Of a stretch of DNA of 26,152 nt, positions 805 through 24,832 are shown piece by piece. Position 1 is the first letter of the stretch. Every line of letters starts with the position of its first letter. Origin of the DNA: Polyangiaceae bacterium (GTDB lineage Bacteria > Myxococcota_A > Polyangia > Polyangiales > Polyangiaceae); NCBI GenBank assembly GCA_033763455.1, contig JANRKO010000012.1, positions 1-26,152 of the forward strand, in the 5' to 3' direction. A program made the position numbers and the translations under genes. Below the pieces are notes generated by a model. The model saw only the letters and a list, made by a program, of their open reading frames with translations. It made no database searches and was not told the DNA's origin.

Positions 805-2727
805 TTAGCCCTTCTCGCCCCCAAGCGCTAGCGCGGCTGCCTCCCGCACGTGCGGGTTCACGTCACTTTTCGCGATTTCTTTGAGAGCCGGAAGTAGCTC
901 CGGATGGCTGGGCAGCCACTTTTGGATGAGGCCGACTGCTCTTAGGCGGGTGGCAGGTTTTTCGGCATTCGCGGCTCCTTCTGCGAGCGCTTTGACGAGA
1001 AGAGCGGTGGGCTCGCGAACGATCATGGCGTCCATCGCAGCAAGCTGAGCTTCAGGGTTGTTCCCCTTGAACTGCTCGGCGAGGAGCTGTTCCACGGCTT
1101 CTCCCGGCATCAGTCGAATGGCGTCAACTGCGGCCGCCCTTACTTTGGTTACGGATGAATTGAGCCAGGGCTTCACGGCGGGAAGTGCGGCGGAGTCGGC
1201 AGAATTCGCGATCGCACGCAGCACGTGCACTTGATGCGATGGGGATTCAGCATTGCCGAGGAGCTCCACCAACAGCCCCACGATCGCGCTAGCTTCGTTG
1301 CTTTTACCAGCTTCTCTCAGATGTCGACTCATGGTGCCCAGGCCGTAAAGGGCATGAACCATGAGTGGTCCCCCATTTGTGTGTGCCTTAAGCGCCTCGA
1401 GCGTGTCCGGGGTTGGCGCGGCCGTTCGTATGAGACTAAATGCAGCAGCGCGACGTAATTGCTCGCTGAGCTTTTCGTCATTCATGACAGACACGAGCGC
1501 CTGTTGGGCTTGGGCGCTGCCAGCAGAGCCCAGGGCATCGAGCAACAGGTTCGATGCCCTGGAGCTCGCGCGGACGCGCTGCTCGGCTTGAGCCACGAGG
1601 GAGGGCTGACTCCTTAAGAGCGCGGTCATGGCGGAGAACGCAGCGCTCTCCGCTTGCACGCTTGCTTTAGCGCTTGTCGGATCATCTTTCGTGGAAGCGC
1701 CGTGGGTCCGAGCTTCAGCTTCGAGTGCGCCGAGGGCGGAGGCAAAGGTGAATGAGCCAATGCGCGCGCGATCAAACGAGTCCGTCGAGGCTGATCCTGC
1801 TTGCCGTGGATTGAGGGGAGCAGTTGCGGCGAGCTCGGAAACCCAGTCCTTAGCCGTTTGGGTGGGCTCGCGATTCAGCAAGCTCCACTGCAAGCTCGTG
1901 TTTGAATGAACCGTTGCGTTTGGTCCCATCGAAGTCTTTAAATGCTCGCGGTACTCGACGTTCAGCAAATCTTTGGTTAGCCCAGAGCCGCTCGCCGAGC
2001 CAAAACTTAGCGACCCTTCGGAGCTCTCAACAAGAGTAGAGAGCTCGGTGCCAATGCCTGGGAGCGAGGTGCTACCTAACTTCGTCGCGCCGTAGCTTTG
2101 CTTGGTGCGCCGAAGCTGATCTGGGCTTTTGCCCACTACGTATTCGATCTGGTAGGGCCCCGTGCCGTCGATTTCCTCGGTGGCCCAGCGAAGCGCGCCA
2201 GGTTTTGTGGGGCCCGAGAATTGAAACGCCGCAGCAATCGTATGCAGGATACTTGTGGCGAATCGTGATGTGCCGGCTCTCCCCCGAACCTCCCGAAGCC
2301 TACCTGCCGTTAGTGTGAAGAAGAACGGCGCTTTAAGCTCGGTTGCCAATTGATCGAACTGGCCATCGGCCCCGCCACTGCCCTTAATGAACTTTGGCTG
2401 GATTAAACGGACGGAGAATTGAAGGGATTTGTCCGGCAATTCCCGAATATCGAGTTTGGCATCGCTCGCCAAATCAAATTCAACCATCGGTGTTTGTTCG
2501 CCAATGCTCAGGCTGCTCGCGAGCTTTAACCTGTACGTATACGCTTGATTGAGCAGCCACTTGGGTCCAACGTTTGCGTTGGCGTCAGTGCTCTGCGCTG
2601 CCGACGCCGTCCCCGCATCCGCAACCACATCGTGCCCCCGCTGTGCGTTGTCGCACGCCGCGGCCCCAAACAAAGCCAGCACCGGCATCACTCGCTTCAG
2701 GCTCGCCGCGCACCCCATGTGATTCAT
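805..2727 (-). CDS. Lipoprotein with vitellogenin/MTP-like N-terminal (LLT) beta-barrel and alpha-helical HEAT-like domain
   Basis: Lipobox-like LFGAAA-C. Motifs ELKAPFFFTLTAGRLREV...SILHTIAAAFQ, EEIDGTGPYQIEY, LRRTK, LLLDALGSAGS, VLRAIANSA and VRAAAVDAIR parallel Vitellogenin_N motifs in order. Start uncertain (ORF open to 2814; ATG at 2727 chosen). Confidence 0.72.
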   Translation of the reverse strand: MNHMGCAASLKRVMPVLALFGAAACDNAQRGHDVVADAGTASAAQSTDANANVGPKWLLNQAYTYRLKLASSLSIGEQTPMVEFDLASDAKLDIRELPDKSLQFSVRLIQPKFIKGSGGADGQFDQLATELKAPFFFTLTAGRLREVRGRAGTSRFATSILHTIAAAFQFSGPTKPGALRWATEEIDGTGPYQIEYVVGKSPDQLRRTKQSYGATKLGSTSLPGIGTELSTLVESSEGSLSFGSASGSGLTKDLLNVEYREHLKTSMGPNATVHSNTSLQWSLLNREPTQTAKDWVSELAATAPLNPRQAGSASTDSFDRARIGSFTFASALGALEAEARTHGASTKDDPTSAKASVQAESAAFSAMTALLRSQPSLVAQAEQRVRASSRASNLLLDALGSAGSAQAQQALVSVMNDEKLSEQLRRAAAFSLIRTAAPTPDTLEALKAHTNGGPLMVHALYGLGTMSRHLREAGKSNEASAIVGLLVELLGNAESPSHQVHVLRAIANSADSAALPAVKPWLNSSVTKVRAAAVDAIRLMPGEAVEQLLAEQFKGNNPEAQLAAMDAMIVREPTALLVKALAEGAANAEKPATRLRAVGLIQKWLPSHPELLPALKEIAKSDVNPHVREAAALALGGEKG

Positions 2728-2819
2728 AGCAGGAGGCCATAGTGGGTCCATTGCTGCAAATCCAGAGCAGGGTAGCCGCGTAAGAACTGCCACCTCTGGA
2801 AAGAGCCGCCACAATGGCC

Positions 2820-2825
2820 TAGGCT
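2820..2825 (+). promoter_or_regulatory. Putative -10 element (TAGGCT) of a leaderless transcript
   Basis: TAnnnT lies 6 nt before ATG 2832 with no SD; the same spacing recurs in the paralog (TAGGGT 4505-4510, ATG 4517). Confidence 0.4.
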
Positions 2826-2831
2826 GCCGCC

Positions 2832-3527
2832 ATGACGCGACTTACTCTTCTCGGTTTGCTTCTAACGGTTTCTGCGTGCAGCGATGGGGGAGGAACGGGC
2901 ACTCCGATGGGGAGTTCGGGGGGTACGATGGGAACAACGGGAGGCAAGGGAAGCGGCGGGAGCGGAGCTAGCTCCATGGGAGGCAAAGTGGGCTCGGGGG
3001 GTGCAACGGGTTCGGGGGGGTTAAGCGGTGCAGCGCGGGGAGCTGTGTCGATACACATCATTGAGACGCCGGGGTGCTCGCTGATGGATCAGTATCAGGA
3101 TTTTCCGATAGTTCCCGGCGGGAGACCTGTGACGGCGGCGGGGGTGACGAAAATGCTGGAGCACGGAACGGTGGTGAATGGAAAGGAGGTGAGGGTGGCA
3201 TGTTCGATTCGAGGAGCGGCTCCACCGTACCAGGTTTTAGGGCAGATTCGGACGGGGGTAGGCGCGGAACCACGGCTAGTTGATCTCGGTGCGCTCCTAT
3301 CGGTGGGAATTCCAGGGGTCGACTCGTTGGTACTGGCGGTCCCGGACCTTCCAGATTCCTATGCGGGAGCTGCTCCCGAGGGCTGTACCTATACAGCCAC
3401 AGAGCTGGATCCCGCAGCGGGCCGTGTTGTGGGTTCTTTCGTATGTGGGACACTTCAAGGTCAGACCTCCAAGGATCCGTGCAAGGTTGGGGAAAGCTAC
3501 TTCGCCTTCGAGAACTGCTCGCGCTAG
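2832..3527 (+). CDS. Lipoprotein A1: Gly/Ser/Thr linker + six-Cys domain, unknown function
   Basis: MTRLTLLGLLLTVSA-C lipobox, GST-rich tether, clear paralog at 4517..5194. Confidence 0.85.
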   Translation: MTRLTLLGLLLTVSACSDGGGTGTPMGSSGGTMGTTGGKGSGGSGASSMGGKVGSGGATGSGGLSGAARGAVSIHIIETPGCSLMDQYQDFPIVPGGRPVTAAGVTKMLEHGTVVNGKEVRVACSIRGAAPPYQVLGQIRTGVGAEPRLVDLGALLSVGIPGVDSLVLAVPDLPDSYAGAAPEGCTYTATELDPAAGRVVGSFVCGTLQGQTSKDPCKVGESYFAFENCSR

Positions 3528-3546
3528 CCTCCGAGGAAGTCGGTGG

Positions 3547-3562
3547 CGTGACTTTTGTCACA
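3547..3562. promoter_or_regulatory. CRP/FNR-like palindrome CGTGA-N6-TCACA
   Basis: CGTGACTTTTGTCACA is 9/10 to TGTGA-N6-TCACA; the TTGTCACAC half is retained in the second copy at 5225-5233. Confidence 0.35.
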
Positions 3563-3679
3563 CACCGGAAACTGAGCCGTCGTTTTCTTGCGGCCGGGTG
3601 GGGAAACCAAGGGTTGCAGAGCTAGGAGCTGAAATGGTACTGCGAGGCAACTCCGGGCCGGATGCGTGGAGGGGAGTCC

Positions 3680-4507
3680 ATGGAGATGCGCAAAGTTCGG
3701 TTACTGGTTCTGGCAGCAAGTTGGGTGGGGTTGCTCTTGGGGGCCTGCAGTAGCGGGCCAGAAGAGTCGCGGCACATCACGCAGGGAGCTAGTCTCACCG
3801 AGGGTCAGAAGAAGCTTGTGCCTGTGCTGGAGTGCGTACGGCCAATTCCGCAGGGGTTTGCTGCACAATTCGGGTACGAGAATACGAGTGGGGTGGCTCA
3901 GGATTTGGTGGTGGGGGTTAACAACGGCTTTGGTTTGCCCGAGCCGGAGGATGATCAGGGGCAGCCGACACGGTTCGCCGCGGGGCGCCAGCGGAACGTC
4001 TTTCAGGTTCCTTTCACCAATTCGCTGACGTGGACGCTGGGTCAATCTACCGCTACGGCGACGCCATTAAGTACACGTTGCGGCTCTTCGCTACCACCCC
4101 CGCGGGAAACGTTTGAGTTTCATGTGCCGCAGGGTGTAGCGCTAGCAAGCGTTGTTTTGGGTCAGGAAGAGAGCCTGATACTTCAAGCGGATAGTCGCGT
4201 GCTGCCAGGAAGCACAGGCTTCTTCACTACGGCGTTCGGCGATGTCACTGTCGGGAGTCGGGTGCAGCTGGGCAGCTTGGTCGGTAAAGGCGCCGTTACG
4301 CTTGGAAGAAGTAGCGTTGTCGCGGGCGATCTCCGCTCGGAGGGAGAGCCGGAGCTCCGAAGCGGAGCTGTAGTCCGAGGCCTTCGCACGATTGGACCTG
4401 TGCTGCGCAACAAGGTGAGCTTCAGCCTTGAAAAGCGGCTTGGAAGTTCGGGGTATGTGGGTGTTGGCGGGTTGGAAGCACTGGAAACCAGCGCCCTGGT
4501 GGCCTAG
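3680..4507 (+). CDS. Lipoprotein B1: C-terminally truncated paralog of the N-terminus of B2 (possible pseudogene)
   Basis: GGAGG SD at 3668-3672, lipobox LLGA-C. Aligns with B2 until GYVGV, then reads into the gene-A2 upstream region and stops. Confidence 0.75.
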   Translation: MEMRKVRLLVLAASWVGLLLGACSSGPEESRHITQGASLTEGQKKLVPVLECVRPIPQGFAAQFGYENTSGVAQDLVVGVNNGFGLPEPEDDQGQPTRFAAGRQRNVFQVPFTNSLTWTLGQSTATATPLSTRCGSSLPPPRETFEFHVPQGVALASVVLGQEESLILQADSRVLPGSTGFFTTAFGDVTVGSRVQLGSLVGKGAVTLGRSSVVAGDLRSEGEPELRSGAVVRGLRTIGPVLRNKVSFSLEKRLGSSGYVGVGGLEALETSALVA

Positions 4508-4516
4508 GGTGGGGTG

Positions 4517-5194
4517 ATGACGCGAGTTGTGGTTCTTGGTTTGCTATTAACTGTTTCAGCGTGCAGCGATGGGGGAGGAACGAGCACTCCGATGGGGAGC
4601 ACTGGGGGCACGCACGGGACAACTGGAGGCAAGGGTGGCAACACCACGGGGGGTCAGGTGGGCAGCGGTGGTGCAACGGGCACAGGCGGGACAACAGGGG
4701 CAGCGCGGGGAGCTGTGTCCTTGCATATCATTGAGACGCAGGGGTGCTCGTTGATGGATCAATATCAGGATTTTCCGATAGTTCCTGGCGGGAGACCTGT
4801 GACGGCGTCGGGGACGACTAAGATGCTACAGGATGGAACGGTCGAGAATGGGCAGGAGGTGCATCTTGAGTGCTCGATTCAGGGCACCGCCGCGCCATAC
4901 ACGTTTTTTGCCTCGGTTCAGGTCGGCATCGCAAATAGCCGGTTGATTCAGCTCCAGGGTCAAGTTTCTATTGGCTCAACTAATCCTGGGCAGTTCATTA
5001 TTTCCACGCCCGACCTCCCGGAAACGTACGGCTCCGCCCTTCCGGATCTCTGCACATTTACCGCGACGGAAGTTGATGCTAGCGCCTCAAAAGTAGGGGG
5101 TCACTTCCTGTGCGGGACAGTCGAGGGCAACACTTCCAAGGAGAAGTGCAAAGCCGGCGAAAGCTACTTCGTGTTCGAGAATTGCTCCAAGTAG
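4517..5194 (+). CDS. Lipoprotein A2, paralog of A1
   Basis: MTRVVVLGLLLTVSA-C; shares GCSLMDQYQDFPIVPGGRPVT and ESYF.FENCS with A1. Start set at 4517 by alignment. Confidence 0.87.
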   Translation: MTRVVVLGLLLTVSACSDGGGTSTPMGSTGGTHGTTGGKGGNTTGGQVGSGGATGTGGTTGAARGAVSLHIIETQGCSLMDQYQDFPIVPGGRPVTASGTTKMLQDGTVENGQEVHLECSIQGTAAPYTFFASVQVGIANSRLIQLQGQVSIGSTNPGQFIISTPDLPETYGSALPDLCTFTATEVDASASKVGGHFLCGTVEGNTSKEKCKAGESYFVFENCSK

Positions 5195-5416
5195 CGTTCG
5201 CGGAAGCGCTCGGCGCGTTACCTCTTGTCACACGCCCGAAACCTCACCGTCGGCGCACGCCAACGTGCCAGGCACGCTTGTTCAGCCGCACGCGTGAACT
5301 CAGTTCTGTATCGCCGAACGGACAGCAATCGAGGTAAACCAAGGGTTGTCTCAGACGATCGGCTATGTTACGGCATGTTAACTCCGGGCCGGGTGCGTGG
5401 AGGGGAGCGCTTGGAA

Positions 5417-8400
5417 ATGAGCAGGGTTCGGTTACTGATTCTGGTGGTGAGTTGGGCGGGGTTGATTTTGGGCGCATGCAGTAGCCCACCGGAACCGTCC
5501 AATCACGTCGCGCAGGGGGTGAGCCTCACCGAGGGTCAGAAGAAGCTAGCCCCTGTGCTGGAGTGTGTGCGTCCAATTCCGCAAGGTTTTGCTGCGCAGT
5601 TCGGGTACGAAAACACGAGCGGAACGGTTCAGGATCTCGTTGTGGGCCCAAACAACGGCTTTGGGCTTCCCGAGCCGGAGGACGACCAGGGGCAGCCCAT
5701 TCGGTTCGCTCCAGGGCGCCAGCGGAATGTTTTTCAGGTTCCTTTCGTCACTTCGCTGACGTGGACGCTCGGCCAGGCCACTGCGACGGCTTCGGCCACG
5801 AGCGCGCCTTGCGGATCTTCATTGCCTCCCCCGCGGGAAACCTTTGAGTTTCATGTGCCTCAAGGCGTCGCGCTGGAGAGCATCGTGGTTGGGCAAGAAG
5901 AGAACCTGCTACTCCAGTCAGATAGCCGCGTGTTACCTGCGACCGCAAAGTTTTTCACAACAGCCTTCGGTACTATTACGCTCCAAAGTCGTGTGCAGCT
6001 CGGCAGCCTCGTTGGGAAGGGGGCCGTGACGATTGGAAGAAGCAGCGTTGTGGCGGGCAACGTCCGTTCAGAGACGCCGCCGCAACGCCTCAGCGGAGCG
6101 GTAGTTCAAGGTACTACCACTGTTGGACCCGTCGTGCCGAACAAGGTGAGCTTCGGGTTGGAGAAGCGACTTGGGGGTGGGGGATACGTTGGCGTGACGA
6201 GCGCCAAGCCGGTGACTCTTCCACCAGGCTCCTACGGCAACGTCGAAGTGTTGAGCAATGGCGCGCTAACATTGCAGGCGGGCCGATACTATTTTGGATA
6301 TTTCCGGATCGCGGCAACCGGCACGGTCAACGTTCTACCTGGCGGCGGTTCCACAACCATCATGGTGGACCACGTCTTCAAAGCTCCCGGCAAATTTACT
6401 CAGCCCGAGGCCGCCAAAGGGCGCGTGCTGGTGCTTGTGGGGAGCCAGGCGGATGAGGCGGAGGCGGTGGTAGGCGGAGAGTTTGCTGCAACGCTGATTG
6501 CGCCGTACACGGACGCGCAAGTTCTGGCGAAGGCAAAGGTTACGGGAGGTATCTTCTCGAATGCCCTTCTCGTGGGCACGTCTGCGACGATCAACTTTCG
6601 GCCCTTTGAGTGGGCTGGCCTCTTGGGACACCTCACAGACACAGACGGCGACACCATCGACGACCGCCATGACGCTTGTGTTTTGAACCCCTCAAAGTCA
6701 TCGCCGTTGCTGTGCGGTTGCGCGAAGACCGAGGCAGATAGCGACGGAGACGGCACGCCAGACTGCTTGGATGCCTGTCCTCGCGATCCGAACAATACAG
6801 TGCCGGGTACCTGCGGCTGCGCAAACGAGAAGAGCTTGCAGCCTGCCGGCACGCCATGCGTGGTGGAAGCCTGCAGCGCCAGCCGACAAGAGGCCACCTG
6901 CAACAGCCAAGGTCAGTGCGGGGTGCCCAATTGTGCACCCGTTGCCGGTGGCAGCTGTACATTCAAGACCTTCCGAGACAGCCTGTATTGGTTCTGCAGC
7001 GGTGCGAAAACTTGGGACGAAGCGAATACTCTGTGCAACGCTGAACCAGGCCGCGCTCTCGCTAAGGTGAATGATCGGATTGAAAATCTCTGGATTTCAG
7101 GCGTTCGCAAGCAACCAACATGGCTTGGTGGTAACGCACGCACTAACCCGGACGAGTGGAACTGGGCAACCAACGGCGCCCCCTCAGGAGTTCCGTTTTG
7201 GGTTCGCGGGCTCCCCGTCCCAGGGCGCTTCGAAAATTGGAGCCCCGGGCGGCCCCAATTTGAAGCCTGCCTCACGCTGGCCGCCGATGGCACCTGGTCA
7301 GATGCACCCTGCGCGGAAGCACGCGGGTTTGTGTGCGAACAGCCGCTCCGGAACCTTGGTCCGAGTTTACCACCGCTCGACAAGTGCAAGTTTTATCCGG
7401 GAGTTGCATGCGGAGAGAAGGGGCCCACGTTGCCCGACGAATCGACCTGTGTTGAGCCAGCTGTGGCGCAGCTGCCGAACTCGCTTGCGGAGATGAGGGA
7501 CGCTGCGGCGGCGTGCTTTGCTTCGTGTCCGATCGAGGGCGGCCCCGGCTGTGGAGCCTGCTCGGGGTTTGCGGCGCCACCACCCATTGGCCCGGGGTGT
7601 GACCCATTCTCAACACAGGAAATAGCTCTTTGCAGGCTAACGTCGGTCGATCCCATCGCTAAGTGCTCGCTTCAGAATCCGGCGTGTCCTCCCGGCTTGC
7701 GTTGCGGCATCTGGTCCGAGTGCGCTGCGTTGGACCAAGCATTCAAACCGCGCGCGTGCGCGACCGATGCGGAATGCGGTGCCGGGCAATCTTGCGGAAC
7801 CGCATTGGGACTTTGTATCGATCCCGGTGCCCACGAGGTCTGTGACTACAAGGATGGGGAGCGGTGTGTTGGCATTTGTTCGAGTTCGTTCGCTTGCGGG
7901 CAGACGGATCCCCAATGCGCTGGGAACCCCGATGGCGCAAACGTATTGCGCTGTTCCGACACCCTCCTCTGCTCCGATCCAGCACCTCCCGTTAACACTG
8001 ACCCCCGCACAGATCCCCAATCCAACCTTACCCCGCAGATCTTCACGCCGGACACCTACTTCCCGAAACCCGTCGAGGCGCCTTCCGAGTACACGCCCGC
8101 CAAGCCGCCAGGTTGCGGCGGCGTTGGCGAACCTGCATGTGCGTTCGAAGTGGGAACCCATCCGTGGTGCAAATACAAGGTTGCAGCCGAGGAGAAGCCT
8201 CCACCGCGCGCTGTCTCAGACAAAGATCCCGCGTTCGGGGACAAGAAGGGAAGCAGCGGGAGCCTTGGCCCCATCAGCTTCGACTTCGACCCGAACCTTG
8301 AGCTCACACACGATGTGGATCCTCTCCCCCTCGGTGATGCGAAGTTCAAAGTGGGAGCGCAGGCCTCAGCTTCGGCAGCCGTAGGTTTCAAGCTTTTTGG

Positions 8401-10324
8401 AGTTGCGGGCAAAGTCACCATTTTGGATGCTCTAGCGCGACTGGAGATGGAACGATGTGGGCTCGCAGCGGATGCCCATTTGGTACTGCTTGGTAAAGAT
8501 TTTTTGCCGACAATAATAGGAGCGGACGCGGCCAATGACCTCAACAACGCAGACACCCCCGCCGATGCACGGAAAAAATGTGAGGACGGTGTTGCCGAGT
8601 TCAGTCGACTTGTAAATAGAGCCCAAAAAGCCCTCCGCGATGCGCAAGAACTGATCCGACAGGAGAAAGAGCTCGTCGCGAGCGGTAGACGCCTGTCGCC
8701 CGATCTTTGCCAGAAGCTCATTGGCGACGGCAAGGCGCTCCCACCTAATTTCCCCAGCGAGACGGCGCCGTTCACCGGTTGTAACCAAATATCCCCCGAG
8801 GACACGATCAACCTGTTCGTTCGCTATTACAAGCGTGAGGTTGGGCGCCTCATTACCGGCCAGGCCACGCTGCTTAAGGATGCCGCGCCAACTTTTCCGG
8901 AGCTGGCGATTCAGTTTGGGCAAGGGCTCCATAAGGAGTCCACCCAGGTTGGTCACTTCGTGTTCGCGATAGGGCCGATCCCAATGGACCTCACGATTGA
9001 CGTCTATATGGAGTTTGGCGTGACGGGGGCTCTCACGTTCTCGTTGACCCCGCAGGCTCTCTTGAATTCGTATTTTAACGGAGAAGCCGAATCCATTGCT
9101 GATGTGGATGCTTCATTCACGCCCAGCGCAAGCTCTGGGGTCACCGTGTTCCTGGGCGCCGGCTTCGATTTTGGTGCAGTGAGCGCCAAGGTGGGTCTCT
9201 CGGGTGACGTGAGTCTGGGTGAGGTCCAGGTTCCGGTTTACGCAGGCGCCGGCCTCAGCGTGCAACCAGAGGTGGATGCACGGCCGCTCCCAAGTGATCT
9301 TACGGATAAGATCAGTTCCGCCGAGCTCATTTTTCCCCCGGGCGTTCCGAAGAAGTATCGGCTGGACGCGCACTATAAATTGGGTGCTTCTGCAATCATC
9401 GACAAGGTTCTGCAAGGGGAGCTCGATGCCAGGTTGCGGATCAAGTTTGCTTTTTTCAGCAAGACTTGGAGTAAGCGCATAACGAAGTTTGATTCGCCAT
9501 TTCACATCGACCCCATCACCCTGATCGGCGACGGGAGTAGCCTCGGGCCCGCAATCGATTTCAGCCCCCTCGCTTCGATTCGGATGCCTCTGCCGTTCGT
9601 AGATTTCGAAGAGCTCCCCACCCCACCCCCACTTCCCCCGCTTCCTCCACCTCCGCCTCCCCCCGGTTCAGGCGGAAGTACGGGCGCTGGCGGAGCCACC
9701 AGCAGTGGCGGAGGCACGAGCAGCGGTGGCGGTTCTGTCAGTACGGGCGGGCGCCCTCCCGTAAGCCTGCAAGTTAGCGGTGACCCTCGTTACGTCAATT
9801 TCAGCACGGCTCAGGTGGGGCAGCTCTTCTACAACGGTTACTGCGAGTGCAGCGCGGCGGGCCAGAGTTGCGGCTCTGGGAGCGACTGCTGCGGAGGTAA
9901 TCTGTGTGTGCTGGATGATAGTCTCGCCACACCTGCAAAATCGTGCGCGGCCTGCGTGAAGCAAACGTCAACTTCTGTGGGTAAAGGGCAGCAATGCACG
10001 CAGACGTCGGAGTGTTGTCAGGGTGATCCTCAGGGGCGGCCCGTGCTTTGTTATCAATTTAGCTTCAGCGGTGGCCCCAAGTATTGCCAAGCCTGTCGCG
10101 GCCAGGATGAACCTATGGCGAATCCGGGTGGCGACGGGTCAGAGTGCTGCGCGGGGCTAACGAAGTTTGTTGGGCCGGGGTCGGAGGCGAATATTCCCGT
10201 GTGCAGTACTCCCAAGAGAGCGATTGGGCAGAGCTGCAATGTGACAGACGATTGCGTGGAGGTTGCAAACGTCTATTGCGATCCGGGCAGCAGGAGGTGC
10301 GCACTTGCGCCAATAATCAGATGA
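5417..10324 (+). CDS. Large multidomain lipoprotein adhesin B2: FGY-N/GQP domain, beta-helix-like region, TSP3 repeats, C-type lectin, Cys-rich region, beta-sheet domain, Pro/Gly linker, Cys-rich tail
   Basis: Lipobox ILGA-C. DTDGDTIDD and DSDGDGTPDCLDACP are TSP3-like. CTL motifs YWFC...TWDEA..LC, WLGG, W..G.P, C..L...G.WSD..C and FVCE lie at ~6950-7340. Start is 5411 (TTG) or 5417 (ATG) by alignment with B1. Confidence 0.88.
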   Translation: MSRVRLLILVVSWAGLILGACSSPPEPSNHVAQGVSLTEGQKKLAPVLECVRPIPQGFAAQFGYENTSGTVQDLVVGPNNGFGLPEPEDDQGQPIRFAPGRQRNVFQVPFVTSLTWTLGQATATASATSAPCGSSLPPPRETFEFHVPQGVALESIVVGQEENLLLQSDSRVLPATAKFFTTAFGTITLQSRVQLGSLVGKGAVTIGRSSVVAGNVRSETPPQRLSGAVVQGTTTVGPVVPNKVSFGLEKRLGGGGYVGVTSAKPVTLPPGSYGNVEVLSNGALTLQAGRYYFGYFRIAATGTVNVLPGGGSTTIMVDHVFKAPGKFTQPEAAKGRVLVLVGSQADEAEAVVGGEFAATLIAPYTDAQVLAKAKVTGGIFSNALLVGTSATINFRPFEWAGLLGHLTDTDGDTIDDRHDACVLNPSKSSPLLCGCAKTEADSDGDGTPDCLDACPRDPNNTVPGTCGCANEKSLQPAGTPCVVEACSASRQEATCNSQGQCGVPNCAPVAGGSCTFKTFRDSLYWFCSGAKTWDEANTLCNAEPGRALAKVNDRIENLWISGVRKQPTWLGGNARTNPDEWNWATNGAPSGVPFWVRGLPVPGRFENWSPGRPQFEACLTLAADGTWSDAPCAEARGFVCEQPLRNLGPSLPPLDKCKFYPGVACGEKGPTLPDESTCVEPAVAQLPNSLAEMRDAAAACFASCPIEGGPGCGACSGFAAPPPIGPGCDPFSTQEIALCRLTSVDPIAKCSLQNPACPPGLRCGIWSECAALDQAFKPRACATDAECGAGQSCGTALGLCIDPGAHEVCDYKDGERCVGICSSSFACGQTDPQCAGNPDGANVLRCSDTLLCSDPAPPVNTDPRTDPQSNLTPQIFTPDTYFPKPVEAPSEYTPAKPPGCGGVGEPACAFEVGTHPWCKYKVAAEEKPPPRAVSDKDPAFGDKKGSSGSLGPISFDFDPNLELTHDVDPLPLGDAKFKVGAQASASAAVGFKLFGVAGKVTILDALARLEMERCGLAADAHLVLLGKDFLPTIIGADAANDLNNADTPADARKKCEDGVAEFSRLVNRAQKALRDAQELIRQEKELVASGRRLSPDLCQKLIGDGKALPPNFPSETAPFTGCNQISPEDTINLFVRYYKREVGRLITGQATLLKDAAPTFPELAIQFGQGLHKESTQVGHFVFAIGPIPMDLTIDVYMEFGVTGALTFSLTPQALLNSYFNGEAESIADVDASFTPSASSGVTVFLGAGFDFGAVSAKVGLSGDVSLGEVQVPVYAGAGLSVQPEVDARPLPSDLTDKISSAELIFPPGVPKKYRLDAHYKLGASAIIDKVLQGELDARLRIKFAFFSKTWSKRITKFDSPFHIDPITLIGDGSSLGPAIDFSPLASIRMPLPFVDFEELPTPPPLPPLPPPPPPPGSGGSTGAGGATSSGGGTSSGGGSVSTGGRPPVSLQVSGDPRYVNFSTAQVGQLFYNGYCECSAAGQSCGSGSDCCGGNLCVLDDSLATPAKSCAACVKQTSTSVGKGQQCTQTSECCQGDPQGRPVLCYQFSFSGGPKYCQACRGQDEPMANPGGDGSECCAGLTKFVGPGSEANIPVCSTPKRAIGQSCNVTDDCVEVANVYCDPGSRRCALAPIIR

Positions 10325-11559
10325 AGTACGCAGAGATCCATGCGCGGAAAGGGAAACCGATGAAAGGCAAATCGGCGGGTCAATCATTGGGGCTAGTATT
10401 CGTGGCAGCGGTGGCAAGCGCCTGTGGCACTAACGCCAGCACCAGCCCCAGTTCATCGTCGCCTGTCGTGCCAGCTGGAGGCAATGGCGGTGCACTGTGG
10501 TCGTTGACAGGCGGTGGCGGGAGCGGTGGTGGTAGTGGTGGTAGTGGTGGTAGTGGTGGCAGCCCCCTCAGCCCGCCTTCTATTGGTGGAAGGGCCGGCA
10601 CGAGCAGCGGTGGAATGGCGGGGGCTCCATCCGAACCGAAGCTTGAACCGCGTGCTCTAGTTGTCACGCTTGAAGGTGGATGCGCATTGGACGCGCTGGG
10701 CGCCATTCAGTGCTGGGGCTATGGTGGGAAGCCATTGGACAACATTCCAAGTGGCAAGTTTTTAGGTCTCGTGAATTACCCTGGGCTCATTTGTGGCACC
10801 CGTGACGATCGAACCTTGCAGTGCTTTTACGAGCCTGGTTACGGCGCGTACTTGTTGCCCACAGGACCGATTGAAGGCGTGTCGGAGGTGGCACTGGGCC
10901 CACACCAAGGTTACACTCTCGACGAGAGTGGGAAAGTGGGGTTGGTTTTTCCACAAAAGGGGGTGTCTCCTCCGGATAGCGAAAGGTTAGCTGCCATTGC
11001 AGCGGGTACGTGGGTTGGCTGCGGGATACGTCGTGTTGATCGGACAATCGTTTGCTGGGGGGATCCAGGGAGCGGGTGTGATCTAGCCATGGGTTACTTC
11101 GACGCTGGTCAACTGGCCGCGCCGGCTGGGGAATTTTCTGAGATTAGCAGTTACAGCTACACTTCGTGTGCCATTCGTTCAACCGGAGAGTTAGCATGTT
11201 GGGGTGCCGGTAAGGGTCCAAATGCAACGAAAGTGCACCCCTGTGATGGGGTCATCATCACCACTGAGGCCCTACCACCGCCCGGAAAGTTCAAGCAGGT
11301 TGCGATGGGATATTCGTACGGCTGCGCGGTAGCTGAGGACGGGCACGTAGAATGTTGGGGAAACGGGACCGCAGACACCTGTGAAGCTGGGTCGGTGGAG
11401 TGCCGACAAGCACTGCCTCCCGCGGGTACTTTCGAGCAAGTCGCTGTTAGCACCTTTCACTCGTGCGCCATGACGGCCAATCGGAAGATAACCTGTTGGG
11501 GCTATCCTGGTCCCAACGGCGGCGATGGTAGGCTTGTGCCGCCGGCGGAGTTTCAATGA
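10321..11559 (+). CDS. RCC1/BLIP-II-like beta-propeller lipoprotein
   Basis: ATGA overlap with the B2 stop (alternative ATG 10360); lipobox VASA-C; five CWG repeats (IQCWG, IVCWG, LACWG, VECWG, ITCWG) with C-A/G-I motifs. Confidence 0.85.
   Translation: MKYAEIHARKGKPMKGKSAGQSLGLVFVAAVASACGTNASTSPSSSSPVVPAGGNGGALWSLTGGGGSGGGSGGSGGSGGSPLSPPSIGGRAGTSSGGMAGAPSEPKLEPRALVVTLEGGCALDALGAIQCWGYGGKPLDNIPSGKFLGLVNYPGLICGTRDDRTLQCFYEPGYGAYLLPTGPIEGVSEVALGPHQGYTLDESGKVGLVFPQKGVSPPDSERLAAIAAGTWVGCGIRRVDRTIVCWGDPGSGCDLAMGYFDAGQLAAPAGEFSEISSYSYTSCAIRSTGELACWGAGKGPNATKVHPCDGVIITTEALPPPGKFKQVAMGYSYGCAVAEDGHVECWGNGTADTCEAGSVECRQALPPAGTFEQVAVSTFHSCAMTANRKITCWGYPGPNGGDGRLVPPAEFQ
10528..10559 (+). repeat. 9-bp tandem repeat (GGTGGTAGT)x3 encoding a GGS linker
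   Basis: Directly visible in the sequence. Confidence 0.8.
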
Positions 11560-12199: not shown

Positions 12200-15100
12200 A
12201 TGAAACCGCTCAACCAGCTCCTGCTTGCTTCTATCGTATTCGGCTGTTCGAACGTCCCTGAGAACGCCGATAAGAAGGCGCAGCCAATTATTAACGGCGA
12301 TATTCTGAGCTCGGCCCAGGTCGCCGATTCTCCGACGGTGCTGTACGGGTCCGCGCAGGACCCGCAGAGAGCCTATGGGTCGGGCATTCGCATAGGCAAG
12401 AATATGGTCTTGACGGCCGGCCACGTCGCGTGGACGGGGGACTTTCGAGTCTTAGTCGATGGTAAGCCGTCTGTTCTGTCGGGCTTGAGCGAAGTTCGGG
12501 TGCGGAGCGGAGGGAAGGTTGGAGGCACCCGAATCAAAGGATTTCCTCGTTTCTATCCGAACTACGGATACGTGTGGCCCGAACCCCGTAACGGTACCGG
12601 CGTGGACCTCGCCCTTGTTTTCGTAGAAGATCCAAGCCAATTGACTGGTGTGCCGATCGATTTGAAGGATCTTGGTTGCACGAAGCCCACTAAGCTTCTG
12701 TGTGAGTCATCTATTCGGCATCACGTCGTGCCGGGGCCCGCTAATGGTAACAACCAGGCATCCCCGGAGTTCGGAGTCTTGAACCGTGCCATCTTCCGGA
12801 CGGACTCAAGCCCGGTAGCCACACCGTGGCTACTTCCTACGGTCATCAATCGACCGATTTTTGGCATCTTTGGCGAGTACCAAACATTGTTTGAGGGAGA
12901 CTCTGGCGCAGGATGTCTCGATGCCGAGTCCGACAGGTTGGCTGGGATCGTGAGCAATGCGGGAAACAACGACTCCACCACAGACGTGAGAATGAGTACT
13001 GGTGACGTCGTCTGGCTTGGGTACGGCGATATCTGCCAGTGGATACACGACGCAAGCGACCCCAGCACGGTGGCAATCCAGCAGGCACACCTCGACGGGG
13101 ACCGGCAGAAGGACACACTCCTACTGTCCCACACAGGGGGAGACGATTTCTCGTTCCGCATCCGGAGGACGAGGCTGGCCGAGCAGACTTTCTCTGTAAA
13201 AATCAAACTGCCCGGAACACGGAACATTCACGCCGTAGCAATGGGAAACTACAATGGGAAGGGGCAGAGCCTTGCCTTGTTGGACAATGGATCCATCATG
13301 TTCGCTGGGCTTGAAGACCCCAAGCAAAGCTCTATTGTCCCACCGGTATCCTCGTTGGTAGGTTACCGGCCGCCGAACAACTACTACCAAATTTGGAAAG
13401 CCGACGTGAACGGTGATCGGTTCGACGACCTTGTAGCCGGACGTCGAGACAGCAGAGTGGACGTCTTTTTAGGCAGCGCGGATGGCCTCGCTTACTCACC
13501 AAGCGTATCAGATTTCACGTTTACGTTGCTTCGCCTGGACGGAGACACATTACCCGATCTCCTTTGGACAAAGGACGGCGACATCAACGTTGCTACTAGC
13601 CTGGGAGGGACTTGCGCCGACATCACGCTTTGCCCACGCCATTCCAAGGTCACCATCCCCGGTGGCATTTCTTTGCAGATAACGAAGCCTGGGCGCTTCC
13701 GGCGGTTTTCCGGAGATGATGCTGGGGTGGAAGACATCGCCTCCATCGGAGATGGCTACGTCATCTGGTGCAAGTCAACGCTGGCTGGGGTTGAATGTGT
13801 CTCGTCCTTGGATGGTCCCCCCACGCGTAAAGCGACCGACCTTGATGTTACTGATTTCGATCGCGACGGACTCGACGACATCCGAGTTTCATACGCGAAC
13901 GGAGAGCAAAAAACCTTTTTGTCATCCGACACCGGCTTCAAGCCGAGGGCGGGGATCGGAAAGCCGAAGATTAAGGTCATACCAGCCGACCTCGACGCCG
14001 ATGGGCGGTCCGACGCCGTCGCGCTCGACAATAACAACGGGCGCGTTTCGCTACAGATTCGCTTGAATGGATCGACGCCGTTTGAGCTTCCCGAGTTTCT
14101 CACTGCCATCCCTTACGTGGCGCCCGTTGCACTGCTCGCCGGAAACTTCAACGGTGATGCGAATGCTGCAACGGCCGCCTCCGCGACCGCCCAAGTCGCT
14201 CCGGGTATCCCGATCGAGGACATAGCAATCTTGAGCGGCGGCAAGGTTTATGCGCTTATCTCGGACGGCCACGGCTCCCTTGTCCCCAATTCTCTCGATG
14301 GCCCCGGAAATGCTACTTCGCTTCGAGTCAATGACGTCAACGGCGACGGCTTCGACGACCTCGAAGCCACCCAATCCGACGGTTCGGTCACTGTATACAC
14401 CGGCGTGTCTGATCCAACTCAGGGTCTCAGCCCACTGAGCACCAACTTCACCGGCCTTCCCACCGCCGAAAGCAACGACGGCAAGATGCTGGTGTTGAGT
14501 GGTCAGGGTGCTGACACAGTCGGATCGAGCGAAGCTCGACTCAAGATAACGGTGGGCCCCGAAGAAACCGCGGCCCTCGATCGACTGGTTGTGCAGGTAT
14601 TCGACGGCGACAATGGCGGCCTTCACCAGTTTGACAAGGAAACAAACGTCCTAAAAACCTGTTACCAATTAAGCGCCGATCCCTGCGGGGATGGAGGCAG
14701 TGGCAACTGTAACGGTGGTACGCGCCCCCGGGTGCTGCTCAAGACTGTGAGCAGCGATGAGCTGCACGATGACGTTTGGGATGCCATCTTCGACGGCCCA
14801 CACCCCGTATCCGCGTCGCTCACAGGTAATGGGCAGGCCCCCTTCACGTACGAGCTTCACGTGTTTATGTCGGAGACCTGCAACACGTTGCCCGACCCAA
14901 CCAAGACGCTGAAGGTTGCCACAGCGGATGCTTTTAAGGTGCGTGCCAACGGTATGGTGAGCCACCCGCTCGGCGAATTTTCGTTTATTGGGTCCGATTC
15001 TGATGGCCCAGACGGCGTCCCCGACCTGCCCTACATGCGAGATACTGAATACAATGGCGTCTTCGAACTGCCGATTGCCGTTGGCCCAGGAGCGACGGAA

Positions 15101-17020
15101 ATCCAGTTGAAGGAAACGGATGCTGACTCGCTCTCGGACTCCACCCCCGGTGTATCGTTGGGTGCGACGCAAGCCATTCAATATCGATTGATCAAGCCCA
15201 CGGGGGAAGCAGCGGCGGTAGTTGGTGCGGAGGACACGGCACCCGCAGATGTCGTGCCGAATCCGTCCGGCAACAATGACGGTATCCAGGATAAAGACGT
15301 CGAAACCAGGATCCACCAGATCGTTGGAAGCGGAGAAGGTATTTGGACTTGGCGTTGGGAGGGCGTTAAGGCGTCCAATGCGGTACACGTTTTCGCCCCA
15401 TTTGGCTCACCGACAACCCATGAGATCCTGGGAGCTCGCCGTCACCGACCGACTGCGACTACAGTTCAGTTACCAGAGTATTGGAGCGGGAACTCAGCTG
15501 AACTCGCCAAGGCACTTCCCCTGGAATTGGGCGAAACCGGTGGGAGTATCAAGATCAGCACGCTGGGAGACGCGCAGAACATTTTTGCTAACGCGAGTGG
15601 TGCCCTGTTTGGCGAGCTTGAGCGCCAGCTACTGGTAGCCAAGCTGAATCAAGCGAGGAGCCAGGCTCAGGGCGAAACGATCGGAGGTGCCCTAGTGTAC
15701 GGAACCACCATTCCAGTGCGTACGGTGCTTGCTGCGGCGGACGCAACGTTGGCGGGTCGAGCCACGCTTCCGGGCCTCACCTCGGAAAGGCTGGTTCAGC
15801 TGTTGAGTTCAGTGAATCTTGGTGAAATCACCTATCGCCAACCCGGAGTGCCATTCCCCGAGGAGCCGATGGCGGATGATGATGGGGATGGGCTGGCCAA
15901 CATGAAGGACAATTGCCCGAGCGTTGCGAACGCAGATCAAGCTGATTCGAACGGCGATCAGGTGGGGGACGCTTGCAACGTTACGGTTACTGGAAGTTGC
16001 GTCCTGGAGCGTCCGGATGGTCAGCTGAGTGCGTTTTTTGGGTACAACAATCCGCTGTCGTTCCGCAGTATTCCTGTAGGCACGCACAACCAAGTTGGGG
16101 GTGAGCCCACGGGGCTCGGCTTGCTCGATTGGGGCCAGCCGACGACGTTCGAAGGCGGCATAGTTGCTGGGGCCTTCACCCGACCGTTGACTGCCGGCGA
16201 GGTGGTTTCGTGGAGCGTGGAAGGTCAAACGGCTACGGCGAGCCTGGGCGCATCACCTGCGTGTGGAGGACGGGAGCTCACCGATGTTGCGTTCGCACGC
16301 AATGTGGCGGTGTTTGGTGCCGAGTCGTTAACTCTGGGCGACCGCGTGAGCGTGGTCGCGAGCGGGGACATGGCGACCCTCGTGAGCGGGGGAGACATGG
16401 TGTTGGGTGCCAACGTGAGCGTCGGGAACGTCATGGCGAGAGGCCGTGCGAACGTTGGGGCAGGCAGCGCCGTGCTTGGGTCTGCGGTCACGGGCCAAGC
16501 ACTCACTCTGGGCGGAGGTGCCGTGGTAGCTGGGGCGGACGTGCGGAGTGTATTGCCACAACACGCGTTTGGCTGGCGAGTCGCCTTCAACGCGACAACG
16601 CTTGGAGATGTCGATGTTCAAGCTGGGCAGAGCCGAGTGCTTCCGCCTGGCAACTACGGCAAGGTGAACGTCCGGCCGGGCGCGCGCCTCAGCTTGCAGA
16701 TCGGAAATTACCAGTTTGGAAGTCTGTTGGTCGACAAGCAAGGCACGCTTGCCGCAGGCGACGGAGCAGTGACGGTGCACGTCGCCACGAGCCTCGACCA
16801 CCGCGGCTCCACTTCGGTGCAGGCTCACTCCGATCTAACGCTCGGCTACCTTGGCTCGGAGCCGGCAAAGGTCAACGCTTCGTTCACTGGTGCCGTTGTC
16901 GTACCGAATGCGGAATTGGCGCTAGGTGCCACCCCGAATGCGGTGTATCGAGGTTCATTTTTTGCGAAGAGCCTCACGGTGGGCCCGGGTACTTTGCTCG
17001 AATTCGCGCGCCCCAGGTGA
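12200..17020 (+). CDS. Lipoprotein: S1 (trypsin-fold) serine protease + FG-GAP repeats + TSP3 + FGY-N/GQP domain + C-terminal beta-helix-like domain
   Basis: Lipobox VFG-C; AQP|IING activation site; VLTAGH, DLALV and GDSGAG triad motifs; repeated D.NGD..DDL motifs; DDDGDGLANMKDNCPSVANADQADSNGDQVGDAC (TSP3). Confidence 0.9.
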   Translation: MKPLNQLLLASIVFGCSNVPENADKKAQPIINGDILSSAQVADSPTVLYGSAQDPQRAYGSGIRIGKNMVLTAGHVAWTGDFRVLVDGKPSVLSGLSEVRVRSGGKVGGTRIKGFPRFYPNYGYVWPEPRNGTGVDLALVFVEDPSQLTGVPIDLKDLGCTKPTKLLCESSIRHHVVPGPANGNNQASPEFGVLNRAIFRTDSSPVATPWLLPTVINRPIFGIFGEYQTLFEGDSGAGCLDAESDRLAGIVSNAGNNDSTTDVRMSTGDVVWLGYGDICQWIHDASDPSTVAIQQAHLDGDRQKDTLLLSHTGGDDFSFRIRRTRLAEQTFSVKIKLPGTRNIHAVAMGNYNGKGQSLALLDNGSIMFAGLEDPKQSSIVPPVSSLVGYRPPNNYYQIWKADVNGDRFDDLVAGRRDSRVDVFLGSADGLAYSPSVSDFTFTLLRLDGDTLPDLLWTKDGDINVATSLGGTCADITLCPRHSKVTIPGGISLQITKPGRFRRFSGDDAGVEDIASIGDGYVIWCKSTLAGVECVSSLDGPPTRKATDLDVTDFDRDGLDDIRVSYANGEQKTFLSSDTGFKPRAGIGKPKIKVIPADLDADGRSDAVALDNNNGRVSLQIRLNGSTPFELPEFLTAIPYVAPVALLAGNFNGDANAATAASATAQVAPGIPIEDIAILSGGKVYALISDGHGSLVPNSLDGPGNATSLRVNDVNGDGFDDLEATQSDGSVTVYTGVSDPTQGLSPLSTNFTGLPTAESNDGKMLVLSGQGADTVGSSEARLKITVGPEETAALDRLVVQVFDGDNGGLHQFDKETNVLKTCYQLSADPCGDGGSGNCNGGTRPRVLLKTVSSDELHDDVWDAIFDGPHPVSASLTGNGQAPFTYELHVFMSETCNTLPDPTKTLKVATADAFKVRANGMVSHPLGEFSFIGSDSDGPDGVPDLPYMRDTEYNGVFELPIAVGPGATEIQLKETDADSLSDSTPGVSLGATQAIQYRLIKPTGEAAAVVGAEDTAPADVVPNPSGNNDGIQDKDVETRIHQIVGSGEGIWTWRWEGVKASNAVHVFAPFGSPTTHEILGARRHRPTATTVQLPEYWSGNSAELAKALPLELGETGGSIKISTLGDAQNIFANASGALFGELERQLLVAKLNQARSQAQGETIGGALVYGTTIPVRTVLAAADATLAGRATLPGLTSERLVQLLSSVNLGEITYRQPGVPFPEEPMADDDGDGLANMKDNCPSVANADQADSNGDQVGDACNVTVTGSCVLERPDGQLSAFFGYNNPLSFRSIPVGTHNQVGGEPTGLGLLDWGQPTTFEGGIVAGAFTRPLTAGEVVSWSVEGQTATASLGASPACGGRELTDVAFARNVAVFGAESLTLGDRVSVVASGDMATLVSGGDMVLGANVSVGNVMARGRANVGAGSAVLGSAVTGQALTLGGGAVVAGADVRSVLPQHAFGWRVAFNATTLGDVDVQAGQSRVLPPGNYGKVNVRPGARLSLQIGNYQFGSLLVDKQGTLAAGDGAVTVHVATSLDHRGSTSVQAHSDLTLGYLGSEPAKVNASFTGAVVVPNAELALGATPNAVYRGSFFAKSLTVGPGTLLEFARPR

Positions 17021-22493: not shown

Positions 22494-22700
22494 ATGAGCC
22501 AAGCCAGCACCAAGCAGCAACCCAACGTGTGGCACGCACCCAAGAACGCGCGGTCCGAAGCGCTGAAGGGTGTACGGCTCGTGGCGCCTTCTCCTGAGGT
22601 GGCCGCCGCGCTTGAGGCTCGAGTCGATCATGCGCGCGCACGCGCACGCGCCTATGAAACCCCGGTCACTGACGAAACGCTGCGGCAAAAGGTGTCGTGA
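22494..22700 (+). CDS. 68-aa protein translationally coupled to the downstream peptidase-like gene
   Basis: Lies after the predicted promoter; its stop overlaps the next start as GTGA (22697-22700). Confidence 0.65.
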   Translation: MSQASTKQQPNVWHAPKNARSEALKGVRLVAPSPEVAAALEARVDHARARARAYETPVTDETLRQKVS

Positions 22701-24760: not shown

Positions 24761-24832
24761 TGGCAGCGAGGTCACTCAAACTGAGGCCTCAATCAAAACA
24801 CGCGCTCTATGGCGCAGCACAAGGAGACAGCC

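Follow-up and report, generated by a model that had tools for sequence, protein, structure and literature searches.

Two neighbouring myxobacterial genes that seem to encode a large lipid transfer protein system in two chains

The window analysed here is the whole 26,152-nucleotide stretch of contig JANRKO010000012.1 (assembly GCA_033763455.1) of a Polyangiaceae bacterium. It holds two divergent genes with three open reading frames (ORFs) between them: the first, on the minus strand, encodes a 640-amino-acid (aa) lipoprotein that we call subunit A ('VgN'), and the second, on the plus strand, encodes a 1635-aa lipoprotein, its partner or subunit B. Subunit A carries the N-terminal module of the large lipid transfer proteins (LLTPs), the superfamily of MTP, vitellogenin and apoB, and one domain of subunit B is our candidate for the sheets that subunit A lacks; bacteria thus seem to have an 'animal' fat-carrier machine in two pieces. 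The features of the two genes are as follows.

805..2727, minus strand: subunit A, 640-aa lipoprotein with LLTP beta-barrel (N-sheet) and alpha-helical domain and no C- or A-sheet (ORF, Pfam, profile, model)
2653..2727, minus strand: signal peptide of the subunit A lipoprotein with lipobox Cys25; a disordered linker then runs to about aa 55
1813..2559, minus strand: N-sheet or beta-barrel domain, aa 57-305, with a long central helix (profile, AlphaFold2 (AF2) model, apoB barrel alignment)
2158..2175, minus strand: ExDxTG motif of subunit A, aa 185-190 (alignment, predicted complex)
817..1791, minus strand: alpha-helical domain, a HEAT-like superhelix, aa 313-637 (Pfam, model, structural alignment, profile)
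5417..10324, plus strand: subunit B, 1635-aa lipoprotein with N-terminal cargo, C-type lectin, conserved beta-sheet domain and a Pro/Gly- and Cys-rich tail
5477-5479, plus strand: lipobox Cys codon of subunit B
7007..7342, plus strand: C-type lectin domain in the cargo region of subunit B (PF00059, E 3.4e-12)
8255..9613, plus strand: conserved partner domain, made of a sheet of short strands, a helical insert that is clade-specific and an amphipathic sheet of long strands (candidate for the C- and A-sheets)
8972..8983, plus strand: GPIP turn of the conserved hairpin, predicted to enter the barrel pit of subunit A (predicted complex)

The ORF of subunit A is intact (ATG at 2727, stop at 805). 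A preliminary description of this DNA had taken the product for a bacterial lipoprotein with a Vitellogenin_N or MTP-type module on the strength of a series of motifs, and we found every one of them in the order it gave (PFFF.L..GRL.EV at aa 134-147, SIL..IAAAFQ at 159-169, E.D.TG.Y..EY at 185-196, RTK at 207-209, DALGSAGS at 397-404, LRAIANS at 503-509 and VRAAAVDAIR at 529-538). Its lipoprotein assignment also holds: the lipobox lies at Cys25, and among 149 aligned homologs 86 have a lipobox by the strict pattern, 22 have a hydrophobic N-terminus without a pattern match and 6 have neither, the remaining 35 (truncated, or with a first residue other than M) having been left unscored. With the single sequence, Pfam assigned PF01347 (Vitellogenin_N, 48.3 bits, cut-off 24) to aa 363-583 only, that is, to the helical part, together with HEAT repeats, and NCBIfam gave no match. 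PF01347 occurs once in the own genome and in 0 of 14 control genomes. The expectation that such a protein would be annotated automatically only as a HEAT repeat protein was half right: one NCBI homolog is named 'HEAT repeat domain-containing protein', but Pfam places PF01347 on 14 of 14 homologs.

A phmmer search with subunit A against 1.84 billion representatives (50% identity clusters) returned 1,687 matches at E<=0.001 and 278 clusters (50% identity) at E<=1e-30, with Polyangiales and Polyangiaceae metagenome-assembled genomes and Sorangium among the relatives, and at a stricter 1e-20 the subunit A profile was positive in 32 of 301 sampled genomes of the phylum. Sorangium sp. So ce406 also encodes a homolog of subunit A. 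The best 150 of the 1,687 matches were inspected and, with the database homolog set, supplied an alignment of 149 near-full-length proteins, from which six fragments, one 776-aa protein and six close or partial homologs were left out. The profile of this family matched lamprey lipovitellin (1LSH) collinearly, at residues 2-138 in the barrel (independent E-value 3.6e-4) and 311-507 in the helical domain (5.5e-7), and matched MTP at 1e-8, while a broader 78-sequence profile matched apoB at 1.5e-8. A single-sequence phmmer search of the PDB with subunit A found no LLTP (the sole row, E 0.98, is a chance match), and a viral structure library returned only an importin-like solenoid (E 9.8e-4).

The AF2 model of subunit A (pLDDT 89.9, pTM 0.80) shows the barrel strands and a helix at residues 155-166. 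In Foldseek, ranks 1-11 were all LLTPs (MTP, lipovitellin, apoB and honey bee vitellogenin; best E 8.8e-18, TMq 0.55 against 1LSH), and lipovitellin and MTP, the two proteins with which the preliminary description had proposed to compare a model, were both among them. Structural alignment (VIA) placed model residues 51-630 on MTP 22-613 (Z 19.4, root-mean-square deviation (rmsd) 10.9, 515 aligned), 56-634 on 1LSH 17-623 (Z 18.1, rmsd 6.8, 537 aligned) and 52-410 on the apoB barrel of 9bd8 (Z 18.0, rmsd 4.7, 306 aligned). The N-terminal barrel match on which the Vitellogenin_N assignment had been staked beforehand is therefore present in both profile and fold. Both features of the LLTP N-terminal module, an incomplete N-sheet barrel around a long helix and then a collinear two-layer helical domain, are found in subunit A. 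A canonical single-chain LLTP has the C- and A-sheets on the same polypeptide, and subunit A does not: it ends at the equivalent of MTP residue 613, and every one of the 149 aligned homologs stops no more than 29 residues from query residue 633, just as had been claimed of a protein ending after its helical part without the cavity sheets. The lipid-binding domain of MTP comprises residues 604-884 (PMC6717300), and subunit A matches MTP 22-613; the chain therefore stops where the lipid cavity starts. We regard the homology of subunit A to the LLTP N-terminal module, judged by profile and fold, as practically certain: it is a member of the superfamily by this module and no canonical single-chain LLTP. 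Within the barrel, D187 and G190 of the ExDxTG motif are invariant in 149 of 149 aligned homologs. Subunit A has no cysteine after Cys25, and after residue 57 there is none in 61 of the 149 homologs and one in 59.

The preliminary description had treated the gene as a lone truncated module. The truncation is real, but the gene is one half of a conserved pair whose other half (5417-10324) probably gives the sheets. A phmmer search with the partner domain (8255-9613) matched 12 other ORFs in the homolog loci, and an iterated hidden Markov model (HMM) reached 41; when its 40 seed members were left out one at a time, all were recovered at E<=5.3e-11. Among the 22,870 ORFs of the own genome (6.56 Mb) the partner HMM found exactly one such domain, and the genome has exactly one subunit A, 2.4-2.7 kb away. 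We chose 49 loci by subunit A (the window, L025-L032 and L065-L104; L033 was dropped as a duplicate of L070, and L022-L024 and L034, short or HEAT-only, were unused), and the partner domain was present in 40 of them. In the reverse direction the partner profile was positive in 49 of the 301 sampled genomes, and 40 additional loci chosen from these same 301 genomes by the partner contained a VgN-like gene in 38 cases, of which 28 were matched by a barrel-only HMM; of the two exceptions, one is at a contig end and the other has no such gene. The 10 VgN-like genes without a barrel match (E 1e-26 to 1e-75) are less certain because the broad VgN HMM also picks up HEAT proteins of the own genome that are unrelated, at E-values as low as 1e-21.

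Across the 89 loci the partner gene precedes the VgN gene on the same strand in 65, mostly less than 150 bp apart, while 7 are divergent (including the window), 4 have the VgN gene first, 2 are convergent and 11 are single. The mirror trees of the two subunits correlated (rho 0.54, 73 pairs), and when partners were shuffled among paralogs within 16 multi-copy genomes rho fell to 0.454 +/- 0.033, the observed value being reached in 1 of 1000 shuffles; the A and B genes are therefore inherited as cognate units. None of 6,085 locus ORFs and 204 collected proteins was matched by both HMMs, so that no fused A and B protein was found there, nor did word-limited searches for longer proteins, run with the partner profile only (35 and 6 matches), return any with PF01347; the absence of fused forms is weak evidence, resting on the subunit A side on the best 150 of 1,687 relatives. 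The 3,300 neighbouring ORFs included no universal third component and no conserved lipid-pathway or transporter neighbour: the two largest neighbour clusters (22 and 20 loci) look like repeat or cargo-type proteins and opposite-strand frames, and the remainder are clade-limited. Taken together, the two-gene pair is obligate-looking.

Three further observations concern these loci. In L077 (11048-18549) two tandem partner genes lie upstream of a single VgN gene, and one subunit A may there serve two clients. VgN homologs are split over two overlapping frames at L030 (1-1514) and L070 (9905-11210), by frameshift or assembly error. A sterol-carrier role was considered and rejected: 32 of the 301 genomes have an oxidosqualene-cyclase-like gene, but just 5 of the 49 genomes positive for the partner do, and none was found in the own genome.

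The AF2 model of the partner domain (74 sequences, pLDDT 89.3) consists of a short-strand sheet, the helical insert and a long-strand sheet, with strict one-sided hydrophobic alternation along the strands across the family, and no motif of the domain is better conserved than the GP[VI]P turn. The longest of 50 structural-alignment rows places model residues 1-436 on MTP 622-880 (Z 5.6, rmsd 8.5, 236 residues), and in a wide VIA search apoB 819-1031 gave the longest alignment (Z 6.8, rmsd 6.0, 155 aligned). From the alignments of subunit A and of the partner domain, the two bacterial chains therefore tile MTP 22-613 and 622-880. The Pfam family Vit_open_b-sht (PF09172) matched 6 of 70 partner domains at E<=1 (best 9.2e-5), five of the six over the partner hairpin at profile positions about 156-289, and no other family matched more than 2 domains. 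The MTP row of Foldseek, weak in itself, had the highest probability (0.25) and TMq (0.17) among the rows shown. These results are suggestive, and homology of the partner sheets to the LLTP C- and A-sheets is in our judgement probable. Separately, the ORFs at L146-L149 are giants, with frames that reach 4,647 aa. Their C-terminal stretch, rich in beta structure, is weakly like PF09172 but unlike the partner profile, and they have no VgN neighbour.

We modelled the complex of subunit A residues 55-636 with partner domain residues 1-416, the last 37 domain residues being left out for size. Its score was 0.72 and that of the best control 0.05. Of 157 solved complexes 116 reach this mark, as do 2 of 215 mismatched pairs, counts that apply only roughly to custom alignments. 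The runs shared at least 73% of contacts, with a partner pLDDT of at least 57, and the predicted interface comprises 270-287 contacts. The tightest predicted contacts join partner residues 238-243 (AIGPIP) to barrel residues 69-73, 82, 155-163, 189, 263, 275 and 277, and residues 187-189 of ExDxTG touch the partner hairpin. In MTP the barrel pit receives A-sheet strands, with a conserved turn at Gly746 between A-sheet strands 1 and 2 (PMC6717300). The docking site of the bacterial hairpin in the barrel pit is predicted by the model to be this same A-sheet site, and from topology we infer that the GP[VI]P turn is the equivalent of the Gly746 turn. We consider it very likely, on the prediction, that subunits A and B bind.

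Both window subunits carry a lipobox. By patterns (not SignalP), subunit A N-termini at 82 loci were hydrophobic and anchor-like without a lipobox in 65, had a lipobox in 15 and neither in 2. With a lipobox or hydrophobic N-terminus in 80 of 82 loci, subunit A relatives appear from their sequences to enter the secretory pathway and to act outside the cytoplasm, and the hydrophobic N-terminal anchor of most distant relatives is presumably uncleaved. The 81 partner N-termini comprised 18 with a lipobox, 29 hydrophobic and signal-like, 15 with neither in the scanned stretch and 19 cut at the 5' end. The length of the partner cargo lies between about 130 and more than 3,500 residues, and cargo families were recognised in 15 of the 30 partners scanned (C-type lectin, LamG, Dicty repeats, RCC1, CBM96 and Ig/cadherin-like, some below cut-off), the others having no or weak matches. 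Partner genes of 3,000-4,000 codons belonging to one family occur at L076, L086, L094, L103, L104, L111, L118-L120 and L129; these giants are adhesin-like, with LamG, RCC1 and Dictyostelium-type repeats, and end in the sheet domain.

Both chains are exported, as their sequences show. We propose that subunit A remains tethered to a membrane, here through its lipid anchor and in most of the distant relatives through a hydrophobic N-terminus. It is predicted to clamp the amphipathic beta-sheet domain of subunit B, its dedicated partner, with the GP[VI]P hairpin entering the barrel pit at ExDxTG and the long sheet lying against the inner face of the helical domain. An MTP-like assembly would thereby be rebuilt, with the N-terminal cargo of the partner at the place of the covalent link of MTP. 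Subunit A may then be a dedicated periplasmic chaperone or loader that shields and folds the hydrophobic sheet face, probably with lipid in the cavity, and folding or loading would precede display or export of the lectin- or adhesin-bearing subunit B, in possible parallel to MTP acting on nascent apoB and to the membrane-anchored Lif/CpaB chaperones. An anchored protein beside one exported client is the Lif/CpaB layout, known from chaperones of type II secretion (PMC4713064), and MTP chaperones apoB; a dedicated clamp is therefore the role we favour. For a two-chain bacterial LLTP whose anchored half clamps, folds and possibly lipid-loads a cargo protein we put the chances at about even, and the putative binding of lipid by the system is likewise evenly poised.

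Several points weigh against this proposal. The barrel disulfide common to MTP, lipovitellin and apoB (MTP Cys174-Cys194; PMC6717300) is absent from subunit A. The best PF09172 score was 22.3 of 23.7 bits, all matches were below the cut-off, and the six include two close-kin pairs; in genome scans with PF09172 and PF19444 at E<=1 just 1 of 15 matches fell in a partner domain, and of the 14 match loci examined none had a VgN neighbour. Foldseek of the partner model gave nothing at E<=0.001 (MTP E 0.13), partner profiles found no LLTP among PDB sequences, and outer-membrane barrels and small beta proteins scored higher Z (7.0-8.2) over shorter stretches. The complex score may derive in part from likeness to solved single-chain LLTPs, and the first sheet of the partner (residues 7-78) and subunit A residues 509-636 are without confident contacts, so that the model does not establish a closed cavity. 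The mirror trees and cognate inheritance could also be explained by plain physical linkage. Finally, GspD is present in the own genome, but the presence of a type II secretion system is non-specific.

Instead of a chaperone and its client, the two chains could form a permanent heterodimer in the envelope or in outer-membrane vesicles, a lipid-binding or transfer unit whose lectins dock on glycans of prey, kin or matrix. Reciprocal pairing and complex prediction serve this explanation equally, the pairs are 1:1 and cognate, the large interface (270-287 contacts) is like the intramolecular domain interface of MTP, and both chains of the window's clade, being lipoproteins, could reach the same membrane. 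However, most subunit A anchors look inner-membrane and the partners (frames up to about 4,000 aa) carry extracellular-type adhesin cargo, with which permanent periplasmic retention fits poorly, and the pair has neither a conserved lipid-pathway or transporter neighbour nor a link to sterol synthesis; we hold the heterodimer to be possible and rather unlikely.

The partner domain could alternatively be a membrane-inserting beta domain of other than LLTP descent, an autotransporter-like barrel or an oligomeric pore or anchor, with subunit A a co-opted holdase without a lipid cavity. In favour of this, its strands are long and amphipathic and lie at the C-terminal end of proteins that resemble passengers, its best Z values were to outer-membrane barrels (NalP 7.7, rmsd 3.8, 127 aligned; OpcA 7.5), and the weak Foldseek rows are pore formers. 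However, F or W is the last residue in only 6 of 58 partners with a C-terminal domain, which is therefore without the aromatic C-terminal beta-signal, and 160-310 residues follow the domain in the window's clade. The barrel matches (Z up to 7.7) span 90-190 residues only, with no Pfam barrel match, and reach just part of the second sheet, whereas the MTP alignment spans both sheets end to end; PF09172 is enriched, and the predicted docking site equals the MTP A-sheet site. We therefore consider a membrane-inserting domain improbable.

That subunit A works alone as a truncated LLTP, a scaffold or a protein with lipid in a small N-sheet cavity, seems very unlikely to us. It might be read from the 9 of 49 loci without a partner in the available DNA, from the divergent window genes with their three intervening ORFs and from lamprey lipovitellin, which holds some lipid in its N-sheet cavity (PMC12214520), but most of the 9 loci come from short contigs or lie close to the end of one, linkage in the reverse direction is 38/40, the own genome has one copy of each gene and the complex passes its controls. 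That it is an ordinary HEAT-repeat lipoprotein, its Vitellogenin_N match a solenoid artefact, is hardly tenable: the single-sequence Pfam match does cover the helical part only, and designed alphaRep proteins score equal or better through the solenoid alone, but this idea is refuted by the barrel profile match, the Foldseek ranks and the structural alignments, in which the barrel is matched independently and collinearly by profile and fold, and the language-model neighbours of aa 55-330 alone are eukaryotic Vitellogenin_N clusters (0.86-0.87, a lead only).

The three ORFs between the two genes are as follows.

2832..3527, plus strand: small lipoprotein copy 1, a clade-specific companion with family members in 7 loci, within a tandem duplication
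3662..4507, plus strand: truncated duplicate of subunit B that covers its N-terminal 281 aa and lacks the beta-sheet domain; DNA identity about 75%
4514..5194, plus strand: small lipoprotein copy 2, directly upstream of subunit B

The tandem duplication (2815-4464 and 4500-6195, 73-78% DNA identity) comprises the small lipoprotein gene and the start of the partner gene. The small lipoproteins have a Gly-rich linker and no Pfam match and are kept beside the pair in the 7 loci of the window's clade, in which they are a possible clade-specific third component. Directly after subunit B lies an RCC1-repeat lipoprotein (10384-11559) conserved in 5 related loci, and then a 1606-aa exported protein (12200-17020) with FG-GAP and TSP3 repeats and a relative in L026, whose C-terminal region resembles by eye the N-terminal cargo of subunit B and whose N-terminal motifs we take to be trypsin-like. 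A lipoprotein-like metallopeptidase (17032-18297, Peptidase_M66, E 7.7e-10) belongs to the same island of secreted proteins. Further along are a GmrSD-type restriction gene (19979-21757), an unannotated 522-aa ORF (22697-24265) with what is presumably a papain-like Gln/Cys pattern, and an IS110 transposase (24809-25855); bases 1-100 of the window are, we presume, the end of an IS integrase.

The literature presents LLTPs as lipid carriers of animals that emerged in connection with multicellularity (PMC12214520), and MTP as probably the oldest member, bacteria being unmentioned in the available text of that article (PMC6717300). The portions available of PMC3837014 mention lipovitellin only as a solenoid with lipid, and no prokaryotic homolog. 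We found no paper on bacterial LLTPs in the open text of PubMed Central and bioRxiv, a scope outside which the subscription literature lies, including older reviews of LLTP evolution. Databases already tag homologs with PF01347, so the domain match is not hidden and the two-chain organisation is the undescribed part. With the LLTP module divided between two chains in a widespread bacterial family, the question of where MTP, vitellogenin and apoB came from is raised anew, and the pair offers small, cysteine-free, bacterially expressible models of a barrel and helical clamp engaging lipid sheets. In myxobacteria, it suggests that large lectin and adhesin proteins have a dedicated maturation system which had gone unrecognised. 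A bolder idea, which we regard as doubtful, is that the two chains function as a lipid-binding LLTP and preserve the form from which the superfamily started: their anchored clamp would load lipid into a sheet domain that myxobacteria reused as a modular carrier for exchangeable lectin or adhesin cargo, giving lipoprotein-like surface or secreted particles, and a fusion of the halves would then have given rise to MTP, vitellogenin and apoB in eukaryotes.

Among known systems, the secretion chaperones Lif/LipH/LipB and CpaB are membrane-anchored, with the gene beside that of the exported client (PMC4713064, PMC13381987, PMC7046727). Subunit A shares with Lif/CpaB the N-terminal anchor, a gene adjacent to that of one exported client and one-to-one pairing, but its fold is unrelated (no Pfam or NCBIfam match to Lif at E<=0.1), and its client is a lectin or adhesin with an amphipathic sheet and not a hydrolase; we treat the resemblance as a functional analogy only. 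With vitellogenin/lipovitellin (1LSH; honey bee 9ENR, 9ENS) and apoB-100 (9BD1, 9BD8) subunit A has the barrel and helical module in common, and a weak PF09172 signal lies over the partner hairpin. Vitellogenins bear appended recognition domains, vWD and CTCK (PMC12214520), as the bacterial partner bears its cargo. In contrast to vitellogenin and apoB, the bacterial proteins (14-15% identity) have no large funnel sheet, vWD or phosvitin region, and the system is anchored and not a single secreted chain. It differs from MTP in having two genes, usually in swapped order, a membrane-anchored subunit A without the barrel disulfide, a subunit B with variable lectin or adhesin cargo, and no PDI-like conserved neighbour seen among the neighbouring ORFs. 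MTP works after translocation and chaperones a lipid-binding client, apoB (PMC6717300). On MTP-alpha (6I7S, 8EOJ), subunit A covers residues 22-613 and the partner domain 622-880, and compact partner domains of about 230-290 aa compare with the 281-aa lipid-binding domain of MTP.

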